Below, in pieces: positions 5,485 to 59,700 of a DNA stretch of 64,000 bases. The translations under genes and the position numbers were made by a program. The stretch is taken from IMG/VR virus record IMGVR_UViG_3300047650_000023; one strand, 5' to 3'. This DNA comes from a virus. Numbering within the stretch: the first letter of the stretch is position 1; each line of letters opens with the position of its first letter. The notes below the pieces were generated by a model that was not told the DNA's origin, searched no databases, and saw only the letters and a list, made by a program, of their open reading frames with translations.

Positions 5485-8220
5485 ATGTGTCAAAAGTTTA
5501 TTTATAAAATACATAGTGCTAGATTAAGAGATAATAAATGGAAATTAACATTACCTATTTATGAAGCAAGAAAAAATGATGAGATAATTGCTTTAGCAGA
5601 TAGTTCTACATTGAGATTTATTGATAAACTGAATAACATTACAGATTCAGAATTTAAATGCAAACAAATAAAAAAGGAATTAAGTGTTATTAAGAATCAA
5701 CCTAAATCAAAATCAAACAGAGATAAGATTCGTAAATTATATTCTGATCTTGATGCAATCCAATTTAAACCAGATTATATGTGTTTAATTATTGATAAAA
5801 ATTCAGATTATAATAGAGCAAAAAAAGGTTTTTATATTAACGGAATTAGATATCATAGATATGTTGGTACTCCTAATGGGGTAAAAAATGAAACTATTGT
5901 ATTTGTAAGTGATAGACATTATTCTGAATTAAGTAAACATATTGAGAACGGTAGAAATCCTAATGTTGAATTAGTACCTGCTAAATTTGAAGCATATAAA
6001 GCATTAGATTGTAGTGCGTCAATTCTAGTATCTAATCCTAAAGGCGTATTAGTTGTTGATGATTGTATTACTCATTTTAAATCCGATACTATACATATTG
6101 ACGATACAAATGATGGAGAACCACAATTATTTACTGTAAAAGATGATGATGTGGAATTATCGGATAGCGATGGATATGGGCTTATACTTCCCTCTTTAAG
6201 TTTACAATGGAATAAAGATATTGGAGAAAAAGAACCATATATAAGTAGTGGTTACTGTGTGAGAAATTCTTTTTGCAAGGGAATGGTTTTTTGCTTTGAC
6301 TTCATAAGGTTTGCGTATGAAGTTGCCGGAACCGATATAGTATGTGATGCTTGGGAAAATTGGCATAACATAAATGATATTGAAATAATTTTAACCACAT
6401 CTATGCTTAAACTTTGGGATAGTTATGATAGTATTGAAGATTATTTGTCTAAGTGTGAAAAGAATGGACATGGTTTTAGTATAACTAAATGCTGTCCCAA
6501 AGAGTTAGAGAATGAACGTAATTTAAACTATCAATTTATTCAAAGTTATAATTTTACCGATCAACAAATTCAAGGATTAATTCAACCGACAATTGATGAA
6601 ATAAAAGATGTTTTAGGTGGAGATTATTATAAAAGTCTTTTATTTTTAAAAGGTATTTATTTAAATGACGATAATGTAAATGCATTAGATTGTGATTTCG
6701 CTAAAGCTCTAATGATTGATAAAAGAATGATTAATGACCCATTCGTAAGAACCAGAATTTATCAAATGATTAAAAAGCGAATTACAGAAGCAAAAGTCGG
6801 CGTTATTAAAGTACATTCAAATTTTTCAATTGTTAGTGGTGATCCTTATTCTTTATGTCAACATATATTTGAATTAGAAGTAACAGGTTTATTAAAATCT
6901 GGTCAGGCATATTCAAAATATTGGTTAGATAAAGAGGTAGATAAAGTTGCTTGTTTTCGTGCGCCGATGACTTGTCATAACAATATCAGAATTTTAAATA
7001 TTACTGCGACAGATGAAATGATAGACTGGTATCAATATATGACTACTTGTACTATATTTAATTCATGGGATACTGTCGCTCATGCCCTTAACGGATTAGA
7101 TAAAGATTCTGATCAAATCTTAACCACAGACAACAAATACATTATAGAAAATGTACGAAATTTGCCAGCAATTATGTGTATTCAACGTAGAGCAAAAAAG
7201 AAAATTGTCACAGAAGATGATTTAGTTAAAGCAAATATTAATAGCTTTGGAGATGAAATTGGCTCAACCACTAATAGGATTACAAGTATGATTGAAGTTC
7301 AATCTCAGTTTTCTGCTGATAGCGAAGAATATAAAGTTTTAGATTATCGTATTAGATGCGGACAATTATTTCAGCAAAACGCTATTGATAAAACGAAGGG
7401 TATAATAGCAAAACCTATGCCTAAAGAATGGTTTAATAGAGATTCTAACAAAATACGTCCAGAAGATAATGAAGAAACTATTAAATTAAAAAAGTTTAAT
7501 CAATCAATTGTTGCAGATAAGAAGCCATATTTTATGTGTTATATATATCCTCAAGATATGACTAAATATAAAAAATACATAGCTAATACTAATCGTAAGG
7601 CTCTTCGTGAATTTAGAATTACAATGCAAGAATTATTTGATAAACCTAACAAAACAAAACGTGAGAAAGAATTTATTAATTATTATTATCAGAGGATGCC
7701 AGTAGGTATTAGTAAATGCGTTGTAAACAGAATTTGTTGGATTTTTGAAAAAGAATTTGATGGATATTTATCTAAAGAATTAGCTAATGTTGATTTTGAT
7801 TATAATATTTTAAAACATAATGTTGGATATAATCAAAAGACTTTTAATGATATAAAAAATATTTATGATTTATATATTAATAAACTTCAAGATTATAGAC
7901 AGTTAGTAAAACGTGAGCATATTGATTCTGACGAAGCTACAGTTGCTCGTGATGTATTAAAACAAGATTTTAAAAAAGAATGCGAAAAGATTTGTTCTAA
8001 ACAATATGAATTATGTGATATTGTTTTAGATATATGTTATCAAGATAATAGATCTAAACAATTTGCTTGGGATGTATGTGGAGATGTGATTATTGAAAAG
8101 TTATTAAAAGAAAATAATAATACAATTATGTATCCTGAGTTAGATGAAAATGGTACAATTGAATATGGTGGTAATTGGTTTACTATGCGTTCAAAACAAA
8201 TAGGAGGTGATTTAGATTGA
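5485..8220 (+). CDS. yonO: YonO-like single-subunit DNA-dependent RNA polymerase (RdRP/QDE-1 fold)
   Basis: 911 aa with motifs DSDGYG, KGMV, GDPY, FRAPMT, ALNGLDKDSD (three catalytic Asp), IGSTTN and QNAIDKTKG. Position relative to yonK/hup/terminase matches SPbeta. Confidence 0.9.
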   Translation: MCQKFIYKIHSARLRDNKWKLTLPIYEARKNDEIIALADSSTLRFIDKLNNITDSEFKCKQIKKELSVIKNQPKSKSNRDKIRKLYSDLDAIQFKPDYMCLIIDKNSDYNRAKKGFYINGIRYHRYVGTPNGVKNETIVFVSDRHYSELSKHIENGRNPNVELVPAKFEAYKALDCSASILVSNPKGVLVVDDCITHFKSDTIHIDDTNDGEPQLFTVKDDDVELSDSDGYGLILPSLSLQWNKDIGEKEPYISSGYCVRNSFCKGMVFCFDFIRFAYEVAGTDIVCDAWENWHNINDIEIILTTSMLKLWDSYDSIEDYLSKCEKNGHGFSITKCCPKELENERNLNYQFIQSYNFTDQQIQGLIQPTIDEIKDVLGGDYYKSLLFLKGIYLNDDNVNALDCDFAKALMIDKRMINDPFVRTRIYQMIKKRITEAKVGVIKVHSNFSIVSGDPYSLCQHIFELEVTGLLKSGQAYSKYWLDKEVDKVACFRAPMTCHNNIRILNITATDEMIDWYQYMTTCTIFNSWDTVAHALNGLDKDSDQILTTDNKYIIENVRNLPAIMCIQRRAKKKIVTEDDLVKANINSFGDEIGSTTNRITSMIEVQSQFSADSEEYKVLDYRIRCGQLFQQNAIDKTKGIIAKPMPKEWFNRDSNKIRPEDNEETIKLKKFNQSIVADKKPYFMCYIYPQDMTKYKKYIANTNRKALREFRITMQELFDKPNKTKREKEFINYYYQRMPVGISKCVVNRICWIFEKEFDGYLSKELANVDFDYNILKHNVGYNQKTFNDIKNIYDLYINKLQDYRQLVKREHIDSDEATVARDVLKQDFKKECEKICSKQYELCDIVLDICYQDNRSKQFAWDVCGDVIIEKLLKENNNTIMYPELDENGTIEYGGNWFTMRSKQIGGDLD

Positions 8221-8963
8221 GTATAATTTTAAATGAGCGTGAGTATGCTGAGAATTCAATTAGTACAGGATATATAAATAATAATAAACCTTCAGAAACA
8301 CTTAGTATTTTAGCAAAATATTATTACTCTGAAGGTAGAAATCAAAAGGAAATATATAAGTTACTTGAAGATTTTATGATTAAAAATTATAAAAACTTTA
8401 ATCCTGTCAAATGGAGTATTACAATTAATAAGCAAATTAAACAAGTGGAAAAATATCATTTAATTGAAGTGAATGGTGTTTGGATAACGCAAAATGAATT
8501 AGATACTATATTACAAATTAAGAATAAAATTTTAGAAAAATTGGCGTTTACAATATTATGTTTAGCTAAATTAAGTAATCGAATTAATCCCAATAATAAA
8601 GATTGGGTTAATCGTGAGGATAAAGTAATATTTAAACTTGCTAGAATTGCTTGTACGATTAAAAAGCAGAGTTTATACATAAATGATTTAAAAACTTTAG
8701 GATTGATTGAATATAGTAAAAAAATTGATAATGTAAACACTAATGTTTTATTTGTAGATGAAGATAGTGAAAGAGTTTTATTTATAAATGACTTTAGAGA
8801 ATTGGGTTATGAATATCTATTTTGGAAAGGAGAAAAGTTTTTTAGATGTGGCGAGTGTGGTGTTCTAAGAAGAAAAAATACTAATAATCAAAAGTATTGT
8901 AAGGATTGTGGTGAAGGAATAAATAAATTAAAAAGCCTTGATAAGTATTATCAAAATAAATGA
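8217..8963 (+). CDS. conserved hypothetical protein coupled to the RNAP gene, C-terminal zinc ribbon
   Basis: Overlaps the yonO stop (TTGA); C-terminal CGECG...YCKDC. Confidence 0.7.
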   Translation: MSIILNEREYAENSISTGYINNNKPSETLSILAKYYYSEGRNQKEIYKLLEDFMIKNYKNFNPVKWSITINKQIKQVEKYHLIEVNGVWITQNELDTILQIKNKILEKLAFTILCLAKLSNRINPNNKDWVNREDKVIFKLARIACTIKKQSLYINDLKTLGLIEYSKKIDNVNTNVLFVDEDSERVLFINDFRELGYEYLFWKGEKFFRCGECGVLRRKNTNNQKYCKDCGEGINKLKSLDKYYQNK

Positions 8964-8979
8964 TTTTTGATTCAGAAAA

Positions 8980-10165
8980 GTCTCACAAACCTAGACTGTA
9001 TGCGGTCTGAGAGGATGTGTGAAATTCTATCTAATATGTATAGTATAGAGAAATGATTTTTAATTTATTTCAACAAAGAAAGTTTATCATGATGATAGAC
9101 TAATAAATAATTTCAAATGTGGGCAGTTCTACAAAACGTAAGTCCCACAATATTAACAAGTCCTTAAATGGATAAATATTATTTTCACTTTGGCTTTACG
9201 CCACGATTAGTTTAATTTCACTTGTGTATGCTGAACCGACAGCGACTCATTAAATGAATTCGGAATTAATCCATTTTGTGTTCACAGCACGTTAGTGACT
9301 GCTAAATAGCGTGATTTATTTTTAATATAATAACACAACAGTAAATCCAATAGATACGGAGCTGTCTTTCTAAGTATGCTTTAAGTGCATATCGTCTATT
9401 GGTAATTGTGTTTTTATATATAAGTGATTTTTTGATTTAGGCATTACGCCAGTGATTTAGTTTATGCTCGAAGCGTAAGGCATGGAGCAGGGATATAGGA
9501 TATACGCTATATCCTCTTATTAATATCATAAAACTGCAATTCTATATCATATGTACTCATCTTTAATTAGAATATAATTAATGCTCATGAGTCAATTATT
9601 ACTTTTCTTATGGAAATGTGTTCGTTTCCACAGATTCTCTTATATTCAAGAGTCTATGTCAGTAGTGGGCAGATAATGCATTACATTTGATACCCTAACA
9701 TAAATAGACTAATTGTGTGACTAATGGGCAATGCACAAATAACTACTATGCTCTTAATTGAGCCAGAGATTTTATATCTCTAAATAAAAATAATGTATCC
9801 AATATTTTCATATGGATAGAGGTATATTTTGCGGAGTATATCGGTGCAACGGAATACGTTCCTATAATGCACAGTCGGAATAGAGACACTAAACCTATTC
9901 CATTGGATGATCCGACATCCTAAAAATCTGAAATACTTATCAGACGAATGTGCTGATGGTTGACAAGCAACAGAAAAACTTGTATTCATGGAGATGGCAG
10001 ACATCTATAAAATCGGATTTACTTTAATTAAGTCCCACAATTTACAGTGGGTACATGCCCATGAGGGCAAATTTTTAACTGACTGGCAGGGTTGTTCAAT
10101 AGGACTTCCCTGCTATTATTCTGATTATTAGGCCGTCTAAATTAAGACGGTCATAATGATATATA
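8980..10165 (+). ncRNA. candidate large structured non-coding RNA or leader (ORF-free hairpin tract)
   Basis: No credible ORF in about 1.2 kb. About 20 stem-loops; the non-Watson-Crick pairs checked read as G-U on the plus strand. Confidence 0.55.
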
Positions 10166-10200
10166 AAAATTTAAAAGAAAAAGGAATGAGTTATTAACTA

Positions 10201-10380
10201 ATGATTGAAGTCAGTCAAGCAGCCGCATTTTACATAAGAAAGCACTCCCCAAGTTCTCACATAAGTATGGCATCAAAAAACAAAAATTCAAATGGAAAAA
10301 CATATTTTGCTATTGAGGAGGCTATTACATTTAAACTCTTGAAAGAATTTCACGAGAAAGAATTAAATGGTCAGTTGTAA
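10201..10380 (+). CDS. small hypothetical protein (59 aa, not in ORF track)
   Basis: MIEVSQAAAFYIRKHSPSSHISMASKN...ELNGQL*; AAGGAATGAG lies upstream. Confidence 0.65.
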   Translation: MIEVSQAAAFYIRKHSPSSHISMASKNKNSNGKTYFAIEEAITFKLLKEFHEKELNGQL

Positions 10381-10446: not shown

Positions 10447-10674
10447 ATGGCAAAGATCAGTAAAAGTATGTCGTTTAAGGATGCAGAAATTAATTTAGAA
10501 GATTTATCACTTACAGAATTTAAGAAAGATAATACTACTGAATATAATATTATGGATATCCTTAAAGAGTGGAACGGTATTAAGGGTATATCACTTGTAA
10601 TTAAACTTGATAATGATGTAAATACAATTGGCGAAGATGACGAAAGTTCTGACGGAGAGGATGACGAACTCTGA
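10447..10674 (+). CDS. yonK: YonK-like protein
   Basis: MAKISKSMSFKDAEINLEDLSLTEFKKD...ILKEWNG resembles SPbeta YonK, in a syntenic position. Confidence 0.7.
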   Translation: MAKISKSMSFKDAEINLEDLSLTEFKKDNTTEYNIMDILKEWNGIKGISLVIKLDNDVNTIGEDDESSDGEDDEL

Positions 10675-11897
10675 TAGATGTTAAATCTGAATTAGAGAAA
10701 TATGGACTTACTGAAGAACAGTACGAAAAATGTTTAGATGATGTTGCTAATAAAATAAATGGTATTAGTGATGATGATTGGTCTGAAATTGTTACAAGAA
10801 ATAATTTACATATTCATTATGATACTTTAAGAAAAGCGCAACAAACTATTTTCGGTGGTTATTTTGTAAAAGAATATTATAATCAAAAAAAGATAACATC
10901 TAAAACTCAGTTGTCTCAAGCTAAAGAATTAATTGGAGAACAGTTAGTTCTTAAAAAACAAATTCAATCGGATAAATCGCAAATTACAAAAATTCAAAAT
11001 AGTTTTATTAAATCAATTTCAATTGCAGAAGAATTATCTCAAATTTTTGAAGATAATAATTTTCAAGTAAATGTTCCTGAATATTGTCATGTTGAAATAG
11101 ATGATAGTAGTGAATACAAAATGATTATACACATAACAGATTGGCACATTGGCTATGTGATTGACAACTGTAAAGGGAATTATTATAATTGGGAAATTGC
11201 AAATGAACGTATTAATAAACTTATAAATGAATGTCGTAAATATATAAAAATGTATGACATAAAAAAAGTTTATGTTATAAATACTGGAGACAATATTGAA
11301 CATGTCGCAATGCGTAAAAATCAATCTCAGTTTTGTGAGTTTAATCAGTCAGAACAAATTAATCATGCAATTGATTTAATATTTAGATTTTTAACTGCTT
11401 TATGTAGAGATTGTTATGTTGAATACGATAGTATTTATGGCAACCATGATCGCATGAATGGTGATTTGTCTGCTAATTTAGACGGTGATAATGCAGATAC
11501 AATTATAAAAGAACAAATATCTAAATATAAAGAATTATCCAAAACTGTAAGATTAAATGTAATTCAAAGAAGACATACAGATAAAGAAATTATTGTTGAT
11601 ATTGAAGGATTAAAGTGTAAGTTTTCTCATGGGAATATTGGAATAAAAAATGACAAACTACAATTGAGAAATGAAATGTCTATGAATAATGAATTTTATA
11701 ATTTGTCGTTTCAAGGGCATGAACATAATTTTGGTGTCACATCAGAAAATAATGGTAGATATATTATACATACGGGTTGTCTTTCTGGATTTGATGATTA
11801 TTCGGTTGGATTCGGATGTTCCACAGTTGCTTCTCAAACAATTGTTGTTGTAAGTAATAATAATGTCGAATTAATAAAAGATGTAGTTTTAATTTAA
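10671..11897 (+). CDS. calcineurin-like metallophosphoesterase (YonJ-like), probable CTG start
   Basis: Motifs DWH, GD, GNHDR, SHG and GHEH. The frame is open back to a CTG at 10671 that overlaps the yonK stop and follows SD GGAGAGG, giving 408 aa. Confidence 0.8.
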   Translation: MIDVKSELEKYGLTEEQYEKCLDDVANKINGISDDDWSEIVTRNNLHIHYDTLRKAQQTIFGGYFVKEYYNQKKITSKTQLSQAKELIGEQLVLKKQIQSDKSQITKIQNSFIKSISIAEELSQIFEDNNFQVNVPEYCHVEIDDSSEYKMIIHITDWHIGYVIDNCKGNYYNWEIANERINKLINECRKYIKMYDIKKVYVINTGDNIEHVAMRKNQSQFCEFNQSEQINHAIDLIFRFLTALCRDCYVEYDSIYGNHDRMNGDLSANLDGDNADTIIKEQISKYKELSKTVRLNVIQRRHTDKEIIVDIEGLKCKFSHGNIGIKNDKLQLRNEMSMNNEFYNLSFQGHEHNFGVTSENNGRYIIHTGCLSGFDDYSVGFGCSTVASQTIVVVSNNNVELIKDVVLI

Positions 11898-12004: not shown

Positions 12005-12769
12005 ATGGCAAAAGAAAAATTGTGTGGAATCTATTGTATTGAAAATTTGGTGAATGGCAAAAAGTATATTGGCTTATCTATTAATATTAAACAGCGTTGG
12101 ACACAACATAAAACTGATTTAAGACATCAATATCATAAAAATTCTTATTTACAAAATGCTTGGAATAAATATGGTGAAGATAATTTTGGATTTAATATTA
12201 TACAGGAGTGTAAAAAAACTGAATTATCTGAATTAGAAAAATTTTATATTGATAAATTTGATACTACAAATGAAAAATATGGATATAACTTAACATTTGG
12301 TGGTGAAGAATGTATTCATACTAAACAATCAAAAGAAAAATTGTCAAAAGCTAGAATAGAACATTCTAATAATAGTCCTAATACTCAAAAGGTTGTACAA
12401 TTAAATATGTTTGGACAAATCGTTAAAGTATTTAACACTGTAAACGAAATTAATAGATTACTAGGATATGACACTAAAGGAATTCGAGGTTGTTTAAATA
12501 AGGAGCCTAAAAGAAAAACAGGTTATAATTGTATATGGATGTATTATCAAGATTTTTTAGATAATGGTTGTAACTTAGATAATTATAAAACTAAATATTG
12601 TAACAAATCAAAAAACATTTTACAATTAAATTTAGATGGTAATGTAATCAATGAATTTAAGAGTATTAATTATGCTGGAAAAATATTAGATATACCAACA
12701 CAAAACATTTCAAGATGTCTATTAAATAGAACTAAAACAGCAGGTGGTTTTATGTGGAAGTATGCTTAA
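12005..12769 (+). CDS. free-standing GIY-YIG homing endonuclease with NUMOD1-type repeats
   Basis: GIYCIENLVNGKKYIGLS...RWTQH; two C-terminal NUMOD1-like repeats ending ...KTGYNCIW and ...KTAGGFMWKY. Confidence 0.88.
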   Translation: MAKEKLCGIYCIENLVNGKKYIGLSINIKQRWTQHKTDLRHQYHKNSYLQNAWNKYGEDNFGFNIIQECKKTELSELEKFYIDKFDTTNEKYGYNLTFGGEECIHTKQSKEKLSKARIEHSNNSPNTQKVVQLNMFGQIVKVFNTVNEINRLLGYDTKGIRGCLNKEPKRKTGYNCIWMYYQDFLDNGCNLDNYKTKYCNKSKNILQLNLDGNVINEFKSINYAGKILDIPTQNISRCLLNRTKTAGGFMWKYA

Positions 12770-14028: not shown

Positions 14029-14118
14029 GGAGAGTTGGCAGAGTTCGGTTTAATGCGTCTGTCTACTAAACAGATAATGGTAAAACATTCGTGAGTTCAA
14101 ATCTCACACTCTCTTCCA
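14029..14118 (+). tRNA. tRNA-Ser, anticodon ACT (type II, long variable arm)
   Basis: Acceptor GGAGAGT/ACTCTCT, anticodon arm TCTGT-CTACTAA-ACAGA, variable arm AATG-GTAAAA-CATT, T arm GTGAG-TTCAAAT-CTCAC, encoded CCA. Confidence 0.88.
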
Positions 14119-14707: not shown

Positions 14708-14782
14708 GCAGATATAGTGTTAATGGTAGCACACGAGTTTTCCAAACTTGGAGTGACGATTCAAATTCGTTTATCTGCTCCA
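14708..14782 (+). tRNA. tRNA-Gly, anticodon TCC
   Basis: Acceptor GCAGATA/TATCTGC, U73, CCA; anticodon arm CGAGT-TTTCCAA-ACTTG; T loop TTCAAAT. Confidence 0.92.
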
Positions 14783-28769: not shown

Positions 28770-29639
28770 ATGAATAAAAAAGAATTTGAATTACAATATG
28801 CTTCATATTTATTATTTGATGATCCGATTCCATATAAAGATTTATTGATATATCCGATTCCAATGGAAGATTATATTAAATTTAATACTTGCGTACAGAG
28901 TGTTTCTGTGGATAAAAATAGTATTGACACTAATAATCCTATGATTACTGCAAAAATTATTGGAATGTCTTATTTAGATTTTTTATTTTATATGGTTAAT
29001 CAATCTGAAAATGGAATAATTAACATTTCATATATGCTTAATTTACTTTGTATGTGTTTACATATTAATTCTGATGATATTGGTTTTCCTAATGAAATTC
29101 GACAGAATTATACATTGGATATTAAAACTAATAAAAAAGATAAAGACGGAATAGAAATTATCACAACTACAATTATTGATAGATTTGATTTTGATAATAT
29201 AAGAAAAATAATTTGTTATCAAAATTTAATTGATTTACCAGAAGATGATTTAACACCACCTGCTTTAAAAGAAAAGTTAAAAGAAGCTCAGGATTTCCAA
29301 AACAAAAGTAAAAAGAAAATGGGCAGTCTTGAAGACCAAATTATATGTCTAATGATTTCTACAGAATTAAATTTAGATATGATTAAACATATGAGCATAA
29401 GAAAGTTTGAAAAGGCTCTTTCTCGTATTGATTTCAAAATACATTATGAAATATATAAGGAAGCCGAATGTAGTGGAATGGTTACTTTTAAAAAAGGTGT
29501 AGACCATTGGATGAGTGATTTAACAAATGATGATAAATATTCAGATGTTAAAGTTGGTTTGGAAGATTTTAAAAGTAAAACTGGTTTTCAAAATATTCAA
29601 ACTGTAAACGAATCAGTTTCGTTAGAAAAAATCAGATAA
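28770..29639 (+). CDS. conserved tail-region protein (YomV position)
   Basis: 289-aa ORF abutting the previous stop. Confidence 0.55.
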   Translation: MNKKEFELQYASYLLFDDPIPYKDLLIYPIPMEDYIKFNTCVQSVSVDKNSIDTNNPMITAKIIGMSYLDFLFYMVNQSENGIINISYMLNLLCMCLHINSDDIGFPNEIRQNYTLDIKTNKKDKDGIEIITTTIIDRFDFDNIRKIICYQNLIDLPEDDLTPPALKEKLKEAQDFQNKSKKKMGSLEDQIICLMISTELNLDMIKHMSIRKFEKALSRIDFKIHYEIYKEAECSGMVTFKKGVDHWMSDLTNDDKYSDVKVGLEDFKSKTGFQNIQTVNESVSLEKIR

Positions 29640-47215: not shown

Positions 47216-47427
47216 TTTAGTTTTGAGAACAGAGGATTAGTCGATAGATTAGTCTTCTGATTTGAAAACTAAATAAGCAATTTCAAGTTTCAAGTTATTA
47301 TATGGCAAAAATTTAGTCATAAAATTGATATGTTGAAAGGTGGTATTGATAATATTAATCGGATTATATTTGATAGATACTTAAAATAGACACAATAAAT
47401 AAATTAAAAAGTTGAGGTATTGAAACT

Positions 47428-52115: not shown

Positions 52116-52163
52116 CAGGATTAAACAATAAGAAAATATTTCTATTATTTTTGGTAAATAGTA

Positions 52164-52192
52164 TTGACAATGAACTTCTTTTGTCATATAAT
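52164..52192 (+). promoter_or_regulatory. consensus sigma-A promoter with overlapping inverted repeat
   Basis: TTGACA-N17-TATAAT; TGACAA (52165-52170) and TTGTCA (52181-52186) form an inverted repeat. Confidence 0.85.
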
Positions 52193-52216
52193 TGATTACA
52201 TAAAGGAGGTTATCAA

Positions 52217-52414
52217 ATGTCAGATGTCCGTAAGGTTTTTATTACTAAAGAAGTTTCTGATATACTTGATATGTCACCTGCTTATCTTATTCGAGTAGCA
52301 AGAGAATTAAATTTTTCTGATAGTGAATTTAGAGATGCTGGAAAACGAAATTATCTTTTTAGTGAAGAAGCTATTGAGAAACTTCGTCAGAAATTTAATA
52401 GTAATAAAAAATGA
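52217..52414 (+). CDS. small HTH (excisionase/MerR-like) DNA-binding protein
   Basis: FITKEVSDILDMSPAYLIRVARE...RNYLFSEEAIEKL. Confidence 0.7.
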   Translation: MSDVRKVFITKEVSDILDMSPAYLIRVARELNFSDSEFRDAGKRNYLFSEEAIEKLRQKFNSNKK

Positions 52415-52485
52415 GAACAACCTCTCCCTACCAAAGTCAAGGTTGTTCCCATACATACAAACCAATACTATTTTCATAGTAGGTT
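52405..52485 (-). ncRNA. candidate ~80-nt cis-antisense RNA
   Basis: Minus-strand TTGACA(52520-52515)-N17-TATAAT(52497-52492); hairpin GAACAACCT/AGGTTGTTC at 52415-52448. Confidence 0.65.
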
Positions 52486-52544
52486 AAATTTATTATAACC
52501 TTTATGAAGTAGTATGTCAAATACTATTTTATGGAGGTAGTTTT

Positions 52545-56786: not shown

Positions 56787-59700
56787 ATGGGACAAATGTC
56801 AATTTTAATACAAGCTCTTATTGATCCTGCGTCAAGTTCAAAGTTTCAATCACAAATCCAAGAAATGGCTAAAAATGTTAATGCCGAAGTAAATATTCAA
56901 GTTAATACTTCTACAACGGATGCTACTATAGATCAATTCATCACAAGAACACAAAACAAAATTCAAAATCTCCAATCCAGAAATAACAAAATATTTGATG
57001 ATCCTGCTGTGCAAGCAGAAGTAACAAAAGTACAGGGAATGTTGGATTCTTTAAAGATGAATCCAGAGACATTTACTACAGCTAGTAAAGTTATTAATAC
57101 TGAGATGGATTCAACGAGAACTGCATTTAATTCAGTTTCTAGTGCATCCGAAAATTTTGGAAGTAGTTTAGTAGCTGACAGTCTGAAGTTCGGAATCTGG
57201 ATGATGGCAGCTTCAGCCCTCATGATCCCTCTCAACAGTATAAAAACCGGAATTTCCTCGATTATTTCCATGAATGATTCACTTACAATGACTGCTGAAG
57301 CCATGAATACTTCAGTGTCGAATTTAGGACAATTGGCTTCAGGTTCTCAGCAAATTGCGGAGAATATGGGATCAAATTTAAACGATGTTCTCGCAATCGC
57401 ACATGTATATGCAAACGTAAATGAAACTCAAGCGTCAATACTTGCTCAAACTAAAGCAACGGTTGAATTATCTAATATCAGCGGACTTGATGGAAATTCA
57501 GCCACAAACGCCATGCAAGCAATCGAGCAAGCTTGGAACATGGGTGCAGATCAATTACAACATGTAGATGATGTTATGGCAACAATCGCTAGTAATCTAA
57601 AGGAAAATTATCAAACTGCCATAGATTTTTGTGGCATAGCGGCATAATACATAAACCGTTATTTAAATTCTTTCTAATTAATGGCGAAAGTCTAAACTCG
57701 TAAAAGAGCAAGGCAACGCTCAACAAGCAAGAAAGTGATTCTTTTTAGAATATCATTTTGTGCAGTTGCAACGACTGAATGAAAGAACTGTTCTTAGGAA
57801 TAGAAGCAACAGTCTGAACATCTATGGAAATCATAGAGAAGAATGGTCGGTATGAAATAATTACCTAAAGAAGAACCATTCTCGCCTATTAAATAAATAG
57901 GTCATAAAAGTAACAGAATTGACAAAATATCTCAAGTGCTACATCTGTAGCAGGTACAATGGCGCAACAAGCAGGATTAACAAAATAGTCCCCTTATGTA
58001 GTAATACATATTGAATAAGTTGGTGAACTTATAAATATAAGGTGTACAATTAACGTTTTAGTCACTATAGGAAATGATAGTTAATAATTGTGCTAACAGG
58101 GAAAATCTAAATTAGAAATCATCTAAAATGATAATCCTGTGCCAAGCTTGAAAGGAAACTTTCTTGAAGGTGCAACGACTAGGATATACGACCTAAAGAG
58201 AAATCTATGGTTATGAAATCTATACTGTAAGAATGAAATGTCTTATGGAAAGTGCCAACCATTTGTTCTATGACAAATGATGATTTAGTCTACTCCCTAA
58301 TAAATATCAGGAAACTGAGGGTATAAAGGTATCATTTGAACAATTCGCTTCAATTATCGGTGTCGTTTCAGAAAAAACAAGACTTTCGGGCGATACTTTG
58401 GCTAATTCCCTAAAAATGATCATGGCTCGTGTCGATCAAATAAAATCAGCACAAGATGCTACCGGAAGCACTGCGACAGATTCCAGTAACGCTGCAAAGG
58501 CTTTACAGTCAATCGGCGTGAGTGTGCTTGATGCGAATGGTCAACTTCGCAATATGCAGGATATTTTAGGTGATGTTGCCACAAAATGGGACACATTATC
58601 ATCAACAGAAAAATCATATATTTCATATATGGCAGCCGGAACTCGCCAATATTCAACCTTTGAAAGTCTCATTATGTCGTTTTCCAAGAGTCAGGATTTA
58701 GCAACACAGGCAACATATTCTAATGGCGAAGCACTCAAGGCACAATCTGTTTATTTAGAATCTACATCTGCAAAAATCAAAGAATTTCAAACTTCCGTAG
58801 CAATCATGTGGGATAATGCTATTTCATCTAATACTTTAGGTGATGTAGTACAATTTGCCAATCTTCTCGTTGACCACATTGTACCCACACTCGGTACAAT
58901 CCTCGGTTTAGTAATTGCTTTGAATAGTGCATCAATGGTCAATGGATTAGTCAAAATGGCAACTAATATTTCAACTGCATTTCAAAATGTGGGTAAAACT
59001 ATTAGTGGAACATTTACTAATGCTAATATAGACTCATACACAAATGCATTACAAAAATTAAAAGATGCACAAACAGCCTCAACAGTGGCACAAGAAACAG
59101 CTAATATTGCTCAACAAGACGCTACAGCAAAAGCCTATGCTTTACAAATGGCACAGAATGCCTTATCAACAAGTGAAGAAGATACTAATTTTGTTTCAGA
59201 ACAACAAATTGCTGTAACAGTAGCACAAGCCGCCGCGGATAACGCAGCAACAGAAGCAACAAATGCTGAGACTGCGGCAATTGAAGCACAAAAGGTCGCA
59301 TCTGCGGCATTAACCACTGTATTTACAGGATTTCTAGGAGTTATAGGGTTAATAGTTACAGCTGTAAGCATTGGTGGAAGTATAATAAGCGGTGTTAATC
59401 AAGTAACACAAGCAGCGGCGCGAGCAGCAACGGACGCAGCAACATCATATCAACAAGAATCAGACTCTCTTTCATCTTTAATTAGCCAATATGACCAAAT
59501 TGGCTCTAAAGTAAATCAGTCAGCCAACGATAAACAAACGCTTACTGGTATTCAACAAAGTCTTATAAGTAGCTATGGTGACGAAGCTAAATCCATAAAT
59601 CTTTTAAATGATTCATATGACACGTCAATACAAAAATTACAAGCATTGTCTAAAGCAGAAGCAGATAATTATTTAATACAAAATAAAAAATCTGTTGATA

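Follow-up and report, generated by a model that had tools for sequence, protein, structure and literature searches.

Between the gene for a phage-encoded RNA polymerase and the yonK gene of a low-G+C, SPbeta-like phage lies a long tract of DNA without genes, and within it we identified a 113-nucleotide (nt) RNA of a family that is linked, in Clostridia, to genes of the predicted nuclease family PBECR4. The DNA analysed here, called the window throughout, is a 64,000-nt stretch of the IMG/VR virus record IMGVR_UViG_3300047650_000023, from a phage whose occurrences are solely metagenomic (public contigs of 88-188 kb). The tract (positions 8980-10165) had been singled out from the sequence alone as a candidate large RNA. 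We found it to be non-coding, more structured than chance predicts and accessory to the phage, at the same place in the gene order as a leader region of SPbeta. In our judgement it is reasonably probable that the tract is the plus-strand leader of the late operon and that it carries RNA cargo, including an orphan antitoxin-like RNA that possibly serves as an anti-defence decoy. What is new is that an uncatalogued, toxin-linked RNA occurs as an orphan within a probable late leader of the YonO type; the SPbeta-type leader and antitoxin-mimicking RNAs were known before.

When 400 Clostridia genomes were searched with the tract by BLAST, a single clear match emerged, between window positions 9925-9988 and genome G217 (81% identity, E 5e-10). 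The matched G217 sequence is unit one of a tandem pair (~55 nt each), which a consensus TTGACA-17-TATAAT promoter precedes and an intrinsic terminator follows; directly after them comes a 200-amino-acid (aa) gene of the Pfam family PBECR4 (PF18813, 'phage-Barnase-EndoU-ColicinE5/D-RelE-like nuclease 4', E 3.4e-34). Two models built without the window recovered the phage copy. A hidden Markov model (HMM) made from four PBECR4 leaders matched 9908-10014 (nhmmer E 1.7e-8 over the 64-kb window), and the covariance model (CM) R1 matched 9905-10017 on the plus strand over its full length, with 48.5 bits and an E value of 1.7e-9; with filters off, the E value was 9.7e-12 and this was the sole match in the tract below E 0.05. 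A BLAST search with the G217 RNA against cultured phages gave no match, and denser sampling near G217 (21 genomes in its family and order) yielded nothing new.

Members of the family start at the 5' end with a hairpin (P0), which precedes the variable hairpin P1 and a pseudoknot of the H type. The pseudoknot has the stems S1 (GUYG/CRAC) and S2, the latter pairing the S1 loop with a strand further downstream, arranged around the invariant loop CRACAGAAAAA. In the family alignment 93-94% of the cells are paired, as against 26-52% in slid controls, and 11-12 of the 20 pairs are altered on both sides, a level reached by none of 500 shuffles; the alignments were fitted to the model, which somewhat favours it. 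Both pseudoknot stems are 100% paired in all rows, and the four S2 pairs all covary and are kept by the window. The phage copy opens with P0 (GGATG/CATCC, 9905-9920), where two pairs are altered on both sides relative to GGTGT/ACACC, and continues with the family linker AAAUCYGAAAU in the form TAAAAATCTGAAAT. Its first unit is complete, with P1 (TCAG/CTGA, 9940-9956), S1 (GTTG/CAAC, 9959-9971), S2 (CAAG/CTTG, 9964-9982) and the loop CAACAGAAAAA. These data place the module within the family.

The link between this RNA and PBECR4 was seen in further surveys. PBECR4 was present in 21 of the 400 Clostridia genomes, and the same RNA lay upstream in 5 of 24 PBECR4 loci (four of them distinct), whose proteins are mutually closest. 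A motif search with unit 2 through 401 Clostridia genomes found the RNA in 8, compared with 1 for the reversed control. Five of these copies are directly upstream of PBECR4 and one is beside it in convergent orientation; a seventh stands alone before an unrelated BlaI/BlaR1 operon, and the last is a single unit accompanied by a different tandem repeat and a 238-aa open reading frame (ORF). At this last locus (L197; G001:C26, minus strand) the pattern match at 29219-29239 is followed by two tandem repeats of ~45 nt, a terminator and the 238-aa ORF, which has no Pfam family; the repeats and the ORF may constitute a second, different RNA-protein module. Among IMG/VR viral contigs there were 8 CM-confirmed matches, 3 with PBECR4 downstream and at least 2 without, of which one precedes a Phd/Doc-like pair and one an ORF without assignment. 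Another of the 8 matches is in L206 (about 12440-12693, minus strand), where a ribosome-binding site (RBS) and an 11-codon stump, resembling by eye the start of PBECR4 genes, come after the RNA and its terminator. This copy would be an orphan RNA created by loss of the toxin.

The complete arrangement of promoter, two-unit pseudoknotted RNA, terminator and PBECR4 gene is seen in L157 (from genome G217; 1412-1625 and 801-1403, both minus strand) and also in L169, L174, L177 and L178. Judged by its layout, this cassette looks like an undescribed family of type III-like toxin-antitoxin systems. As in the ToxI, CptI and TenpI systems, a promoter, tandem pseudoknotted units and a terminator precede the gene of a predicted ribonuclease (RNase). 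In type III systems the RNA inhibits a protein endoribonuclease by direct binding, and this enzyme usually processes the repeats too. PBECR4 differs in being a BECR-fold family without sequence match to ToxN, CptN or TenpN; the likeness is drawn from gene layout and Pfam assignment. A similar arrangement is found in AbiF systems of Clostridia (abiF motif, RF03085), where two structured RNA motifs and a terminator come before a toxic RNase gene; in Clostridioides difficile phages the RCd22 RNA neutralises AbiF in cis and in trans (bioRxiv 10.1101/2025.04.15.648962). The RNA there is a different one and the toxin is of the HEPN Abi_2 type, not PBECR4. Neither abiF nor DUF3800 motifs were found in the tract, and a weak DUF3800-VIII match occurred in SPbeta itself only.

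In the 64-kb window, PBECR4 had no tblastn match at E < 0.1, and the gene that comes next after the tract is a 59-aa ORF. With no PBECR4 directly downstream, the window copy is thus an orphan, like those in G311 and L204 (no adjoining PBECR4) and L206 (stump). Phages with an antitoxin-like RNA and no toxin have a precedent in phage TE, which escapes ToxIN by a pseudo-ToxI RNA (PMC5086642); its pseudo-ToxI and captured-ToxI escape mutants are covered in the same review. The orphan described here, by contrast, was not selected as an escape mutant but occurs naturally in a probable late leader.

The surroundings of the module were non-coding throughout. No credible ORF was found in 8964-10200, where the longest ORFs under translation table 11 encode 30-74 aa, and neither code 4 nor reading TAG or TAA as Gln opened a long frame; the absence of genes reported by the sequence-only reading is therefore sound under four genetic codes. 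This interval is the longest gap in the window. The same reading had called it richer in G/C than other intergenic DNA, which proved correct: G+C makes up 32.4% of it, compared with 27.8% of other gaps of at least 200 nt and 29.1% of coding DNA. The GC skew drops to about 0 in the tract, and a search for tRNA and transfer-messenger RNA genes found none within it.

Folding of the tract was compared with 12 dinucleotide shuffles, with four coding stretches of equal length and, for z-scores, with 27 segments of the window. Counting unbroken helices of at least 5 bp with P ≥ 0.7 in a span-limited partition-function fold, we obtained 27 helices in the tract, compared with 17.9 ± 2.5 (maximum 23) in the shuffles and 13-20 in the coding stretches. 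The local minimum free energy was -284 kcal/mol versus -219.6 ± 9.4 kcal/mol in the shuffles, and the excess over chance amounts to ~9 helices and to 55 kcal/mol (summed segments) or 64 kcal/mol (span-limited fold). The three 412-nt thirds of the plus strand gave z = -2.5, -3.0 and -5.1, with window control segments at -0.89 ± 1.41, and positions 10000-10199 gave z = -5.5. The tract thus folds better than its dinucleotide-shuffled controls, a check that had been proposed with the original description. That description counted about 20 stems; plus-strand structure does exceed the shuffles, although ~18 stems are what chance alone would supply. Its eight listed stems all exist and seven are within the high-probability set of the span-limited fold, while for the eighth, GTCGGA/TCCGAC, the rival hairpin P0 is better supported. 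The preference for the plus strand, which the original description had drawn from G-U pairs in six stems and read as selection on a plus-strand RNA, is real in both the summed z (-7.6 on the plus and -4.6 on the minus strand) and the number of confident pairs (223 with 19 G-U, against 161 with 10 G-U), but it is modest and partly compositional. Strong excess folding on the plus strand was also seen in three other gaps, at 52116-52544 (z -6.1), 47216-47427 (z -5.8) and 57648-58397 (z -3.7; 750 nt, 33% G+C).

Comparison with related phages showed that most of the tract is accessory. Viral and genome contigs were scanned with YonO, and metagenome contigs with the 248-aa protein encoded upstream of the tract; the relatives returned had at most 57% identity and all lacked the tract. 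The two useful relatives, L138 (73% identity) and L147 (61% identity in the flanking gene), came from the protein database. L147 has a leader of only ~205 nt: past the flanking gene come a canonical terminator and the motif TTTCTAATATG, then an A+T-rich stretch of ~150 nt, and finally a strong RBS ahead of an ORF homologous to the 59-aa one. In L138 the first ~190 nt are common with the tract, after which comes an IS1595-like transposase gene. The common part comprises the position of the post-gene hairpin, the motif TATCTAATATG, a compensated 9-bp hairpin and the 17-mer TAAGTYCCACAATATTA. Enterocloster and Thomasclavelia YonO phages have no long gap. The short leader of L147 and the insertion sequence (IS) of L138 therefore mark about 1 kb (roughly 9045-10165) as lineage-specific accessory cargo, and from this comparison of loci the tract is best described as cargo at a permissive spot and not as part of the phage core. 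The transposase gene of L138 (1080-1625) has its own consensus promoter and is inserted in the late leader; in phage c-st, IS elements occur at the same spot and an insert splits the yonO homologue (L015). Other public copies of the tract are all identical, apart from 1 base in one contig, so that a covariation test for the whole tract is impossible. A repeated or mobile element was rejected, the tract occurring once in the window and having no match in phage and plasmid collections. Neither tblastx with 20 related loci nor a tblastn search using PBECR4 proteins gave a match, and a decayed gene was rejected as the origin of the tract.

Two hairpins of the part common with L138 could be followed between the phages. 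In the hairpin at 9081-9101, 9 of 9 pairs are kept in L138, of which 4 are altered on both sides and 1 is a G-U/A-U change, with 0 in slid controls; this count comes from two sequences only. For the hairpin at 9118-9155, sequence and not structure seems to be conserved, because the stem is not preserved in L138. An exact 13-mer, TAAGTCCCACAAT, occurs twice in the tract (9139-9151 and 10029-10041) with no further copy in the window, and its first copy sits within the 17-mer conserved in L138.

The gene order here is yonO, the 248-aa gene, the gap, the 59-aa ORF, yonK and yonJ. In SPbeta and BUCT082 it is yonO, yonN, a 1.6-1.7-kb gap without convincing genes, yonK and yonJ, and this shared order makes the tract the positional counterpart of a known, barely described late leader. 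For the SPbeta YonO polymerase, Forrest et al. (2017, PMC5467207) placed the start site ahead of yonK and of what they call 'an unannotated non-coding RNA'; their primer-extension primers lie 260-500 nt past yonN, which puts them 1.2-1.4 kb before yonK. Beyond position, both intervals are long (1.2 versus 1.6-1.7 kb), enriched in G+C (in SPbeta 39-42% versus 33-34%), more structured on the plus strand than shuffles (mildly so in SPbeta, z -3.4) and mosaic in appearance, 50-110-nt pieces of the SPbeta gap being found again in Bacillus and Brevibacillus phages that are unrelated. They differ in that the HU-like yonN is absent from the window and that transcription has been mapped in SPbeta alone, and blastn, nhmmer and a covariance model detected no similarity between the tract and the SPbeta leader. 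The window polymerase shares 44% identity with the YonO homologue of Clostridium phage c-st and 25% with those of SPbeta-like phages (tblastn), homologues of the 248-aa gene lie directly 3' of yonO in all related loci, and nearly all genes of the window are on the plus strand. In Mammaliicoccus phage phi6255 (L146, 7983-10500), which is SPbeta-like, yonK directly follows the HU-like gene, and a ~2.5-kb stretch past yonJ, where only tiny coding sequences and a tRNA-Pro are annotated, could be a displaced RNA island.

Of the three readings first offered for the tract, namely a large non-coding RNA, a processed array of small RNAs and a structured leader of the YonO-transcribed late operon, the last is now the best supported, on the strength of a gene order like that of SPbeta, where transcription has been mapped. 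The array is supported in part: the module at 9905-10017 belongs to a family that elsewhere forms an independent transcription unit, and the hairpin at 9081-9101 is compensated in L138.

Combining the leader with the module, we propose that a YonO-type polymerase would transcribe the plus strand from near TCTAATATG, just past the 248-aa gene, into the 59-aa ORF, yonK and yonJ. The sequence TCTAATATG, the invariant core of the motif shared with both relatives, is a candidate late-promoter or leader-start element; another motif, AAGTCCCACAAT, was rejected as a shared promoter since it is present in L138 only. Locally folded RNA pieces would have been inserted into a leader that measures ~205 nt in a relative, one of them being the orphan RNA at 9905-10017, perhaps extending to the terminator-like hairpin that ends at 10076. 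The module might be released from the late transcript or exposed within it. In its most likely use, late transcription would then flood the cell with antitoxin-like RNA, and a host PBECR4 toxin would stay bound, as it would be by its native RNA, and silent during the shutdown of host transcription by the phage.

Several observations weigh against this proposal. The other ~900 nt of the tract have no homologue in any collection searched (relatives, phage and plasmid collections, Clostridia genomes). Within the module, one P0 pair is mismatched and unit 2 is degenerate: it has an S1 stem (AGATG/CATCT, 9992-10006) with the loop GCAGA, no P1, and a diverged tail, ATAAAATCGG. The phage copy therefore holds ~1.5 units instead of two complete units of ~55-58 nt, although the single-unit copies in bacteria (L194, L197) show that unit number varies within the family. 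No promoter of its own is recognisable before 9905, where only a -10-like TATAAT (9863-9868) was noted by eye; a weak terminator-like hairpin follows at 10056-10076, ~40 nt past the module. The TCTAATATG motif is neither enriched elsewhere nor specific within the window. The PBECR4 search covers the 64-kb window, part of a contig that may reach 188 kb, and the gene may be present elsewhere in the phage. Finally, PBECR4 had no sequence match among solved structures, including the solved type III toxins, and PADLOC has no model for it.

A bolder version of the proposal would make the head of the late operon an RNA anti-defence island, a permissive and very highly transcribed landing pad at which SPbeta-like phages of various hosts gather decoys, namely orphan antitoxins against RNA-guarded toxins such as PBECR4, the other ~900 nt being further decoys against host systems with RNAs still undescribed. 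We regard this extension as doubtful. It is also unlikely, in our view, that the tract is a recombination scar, in which insertion debris (a decayed PBECR4 cassette, IS traffic and fragments) is passively transcribed and has no function. The IS elements at the same spot in L138 and phage c-st, the lack of the tract in L147 and the degenerate unit 2 would all suit such an origin, and the stump in L206 suggests that toxin loss does leave orphans. However, a sequence decaying in a genome of 29% G+C would be expected to gain A+T and become less structured, and the tract is instead richer in G+C and over-structured throughout, most of all at its 3' end. Every pseudoknot pair of unit 1 and the conserved loop are intact, the L138 hairpin has been kept by compensatory change, and tblastn of the window found no coding remnants of PBECR4.

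An alternative that we find distinctly improbable is a leader acting in cis, through antitermination or pausing of YonO, RNase III processing, mRNA stabilisation or the timing of translation, with the PBECR4-type piece incidental. Such a role would fit the position at the head of the operon, as in SPbeta, and the very stable 15-bp hairpin directly before the first RBS, and the internal terminator-like hairpins would need read-through. Yet L147 and the Enterocloster and Thomasclavelia YonO phages have short leaders or none, so this type of polymerase needs no long leader, and neither sequence nor structure resembles the SPbeta leader.

The reading as one large ornate RNA of the GOLLD or ROOL class, with a global architecture and a function of its own, has become very hard to maintain. 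Like those RNAs the tract is long, structured, non-coding and phage-borne; its length, excess folding energy and plus-strand bias agree with the idea, and the two 13-mers could aid long-range contacts. At the gathering score, Rfam returned two tRNAs only for the whole window, and at E ≤ 10 only noise for the tract (E 1.6-6.8), with no GOLLD or ROOL match. The tract matched no described family, and the RNA family found within it is not in Rfam 15. Relatives do not preserve the region as a whole: L147 lacks it and an IS cuts it in L138. Homologues exist for the 113-nt module alone, which elsewhere is a small RNA gene in its own right. Nearly all confident pairs are local; no evidence of a long-range architecture emerged, and the tract looks modular. 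Lastly, a DNA-level element (replication origin, packaging site or hairpin promoters on single-stranded DNA) is barely credible: inverted repeats do score on both strands and the lack of a known YonO promoter leaves some room for it, but in SPbeta the packaging (pac) site maps ahead of yonO, between yonR and yonP, the tract has neither iterons nor tandem repeats, the plus strand folds better and with G-U pairs, and pseudoknot covariation in the module is a property of RNA.

That phages can evade RNA-antitoxin systems with a mimic of the RNA is known from a single phage, in escape mutants obtained in the laboratory (pseudo-ToxI). If the decoy proposal holds, RNA-mimic counter-defence would be a standing part of wild gut phages, placed where transcription by their own polymerase is strongest. 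The orphan would also supply an independent argument, from the phage side, for the PBECR4-RNA pair as a real defence system. The long non-coding leaders of SPbeta-like late operons would gain a testable purpose, and other leader modules would offer a route to new RNA-guarded toxins.

Table 1. Features of the tract and its neighbouring genes (window coordinates).
Feature	Position	Strand	Basis or remark
ParB-like DUF6551 gene	upstream of tract		
YonO-type single-subunit RNA polymerase, 911 aa	5485..8220	+	PHROG 25339/8308; tblastn identities
Conserved 248-aa gene	8217..8963	+	stop codon is left edge of tract
Hairpin just past the 248-aa stop, core AGACTG/CGGTCT at 8993-9008	8981..9022	+	helix P=0.99
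Motif TATCTAATATG, core TCTAATATG	9028..9040	+	core invariant in window, L138 and L147 (three-way alignment)
9-bp hairpin, UGA loop	9081..9101	+	compensatory changes in L138
Hairpin TGTGGG/CCCACA and 17-mer TAAGTCCCACAATATTA	9118..9155	+	sequence kept in L138
~35-nt imperfect direct repeat (TTTRGCWTTACGCCA..GATTWAGTTTA)	9185..9226 and 9433-9470	+	repeat and motif search
Long nested hairpin, 13 + 9 + 6 bp, 95 nt	9325..9419	+	P 0.92-0.98
Twin hairpins, second (9490-9515) terminator-like	9465..9515	+	fold
PBECR4-family orphan RNA, 113 nt	9905..10017	+	BLAST, HMM, CM
Hairpin CCCAC/GTGGG, then putative terminator-like TGCCC-ATGA-GGGCA + AAUUUUU	10034..10076	+	weak 5-bp stem
Two strong tract-closing hairpins: 8 bp; 15 bp without U-tract	10084-10115; 10124-10160	+	P 0.94-0.97
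59-aa ORF, first gene past leader	10201..10380	+	L147 homologue; annotated as gene in public contig
YonK-family gene	10447..10674	+	Pfam PF09642 E 1.8e-11; PHROG 284
yonJ-like metallophosphoesterase	10911-11897	+	called TTG start; real start probably near 10665

The remaining elements of the tract are listed in Table 1. At the position of the first hairpin, L147 has a stem with a U-tract, a true intrinsic terminator, whereas the window and L138 have a hairpin without U-tract. The ~35-nt direct repeat had no copy in the rest of the window, no homologue was found for the long nested hairpin, and no second copy of the tract exists elsewhere in the window. The terminator-like hairpin past the module matches the terminator position of RNA family members. 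The two closing hairpins stand just ahead of the first RBS and may be processing or stabilising structures.

On the right-hand side, the 59-aa ORF was compared with a 91-aa ORF that occupies the same position in L147 behind a strong RBS (32% identity over 47 aa, pairwise E 4e-8). This similarity suggests that the 59-aa ORF is probably a real gene, which sets the end of the tract near 10200. For the metallophosphoesterase, homology to relatives runs ~80 codons 5' of the TTG start at 10911, to about 10665, and the frame is open upstream of 10911 (10653-10970) without ATG, GTG or TTG. The gene probably has either an unusual start codon right after yonK or a mis-called start. Two phage tRNA genes were found further downstream in the window, a tRNA-Ser with the unusual anticodon ACT (14029-14118) and a tRNA-Gly(TCC) (14708-14782).

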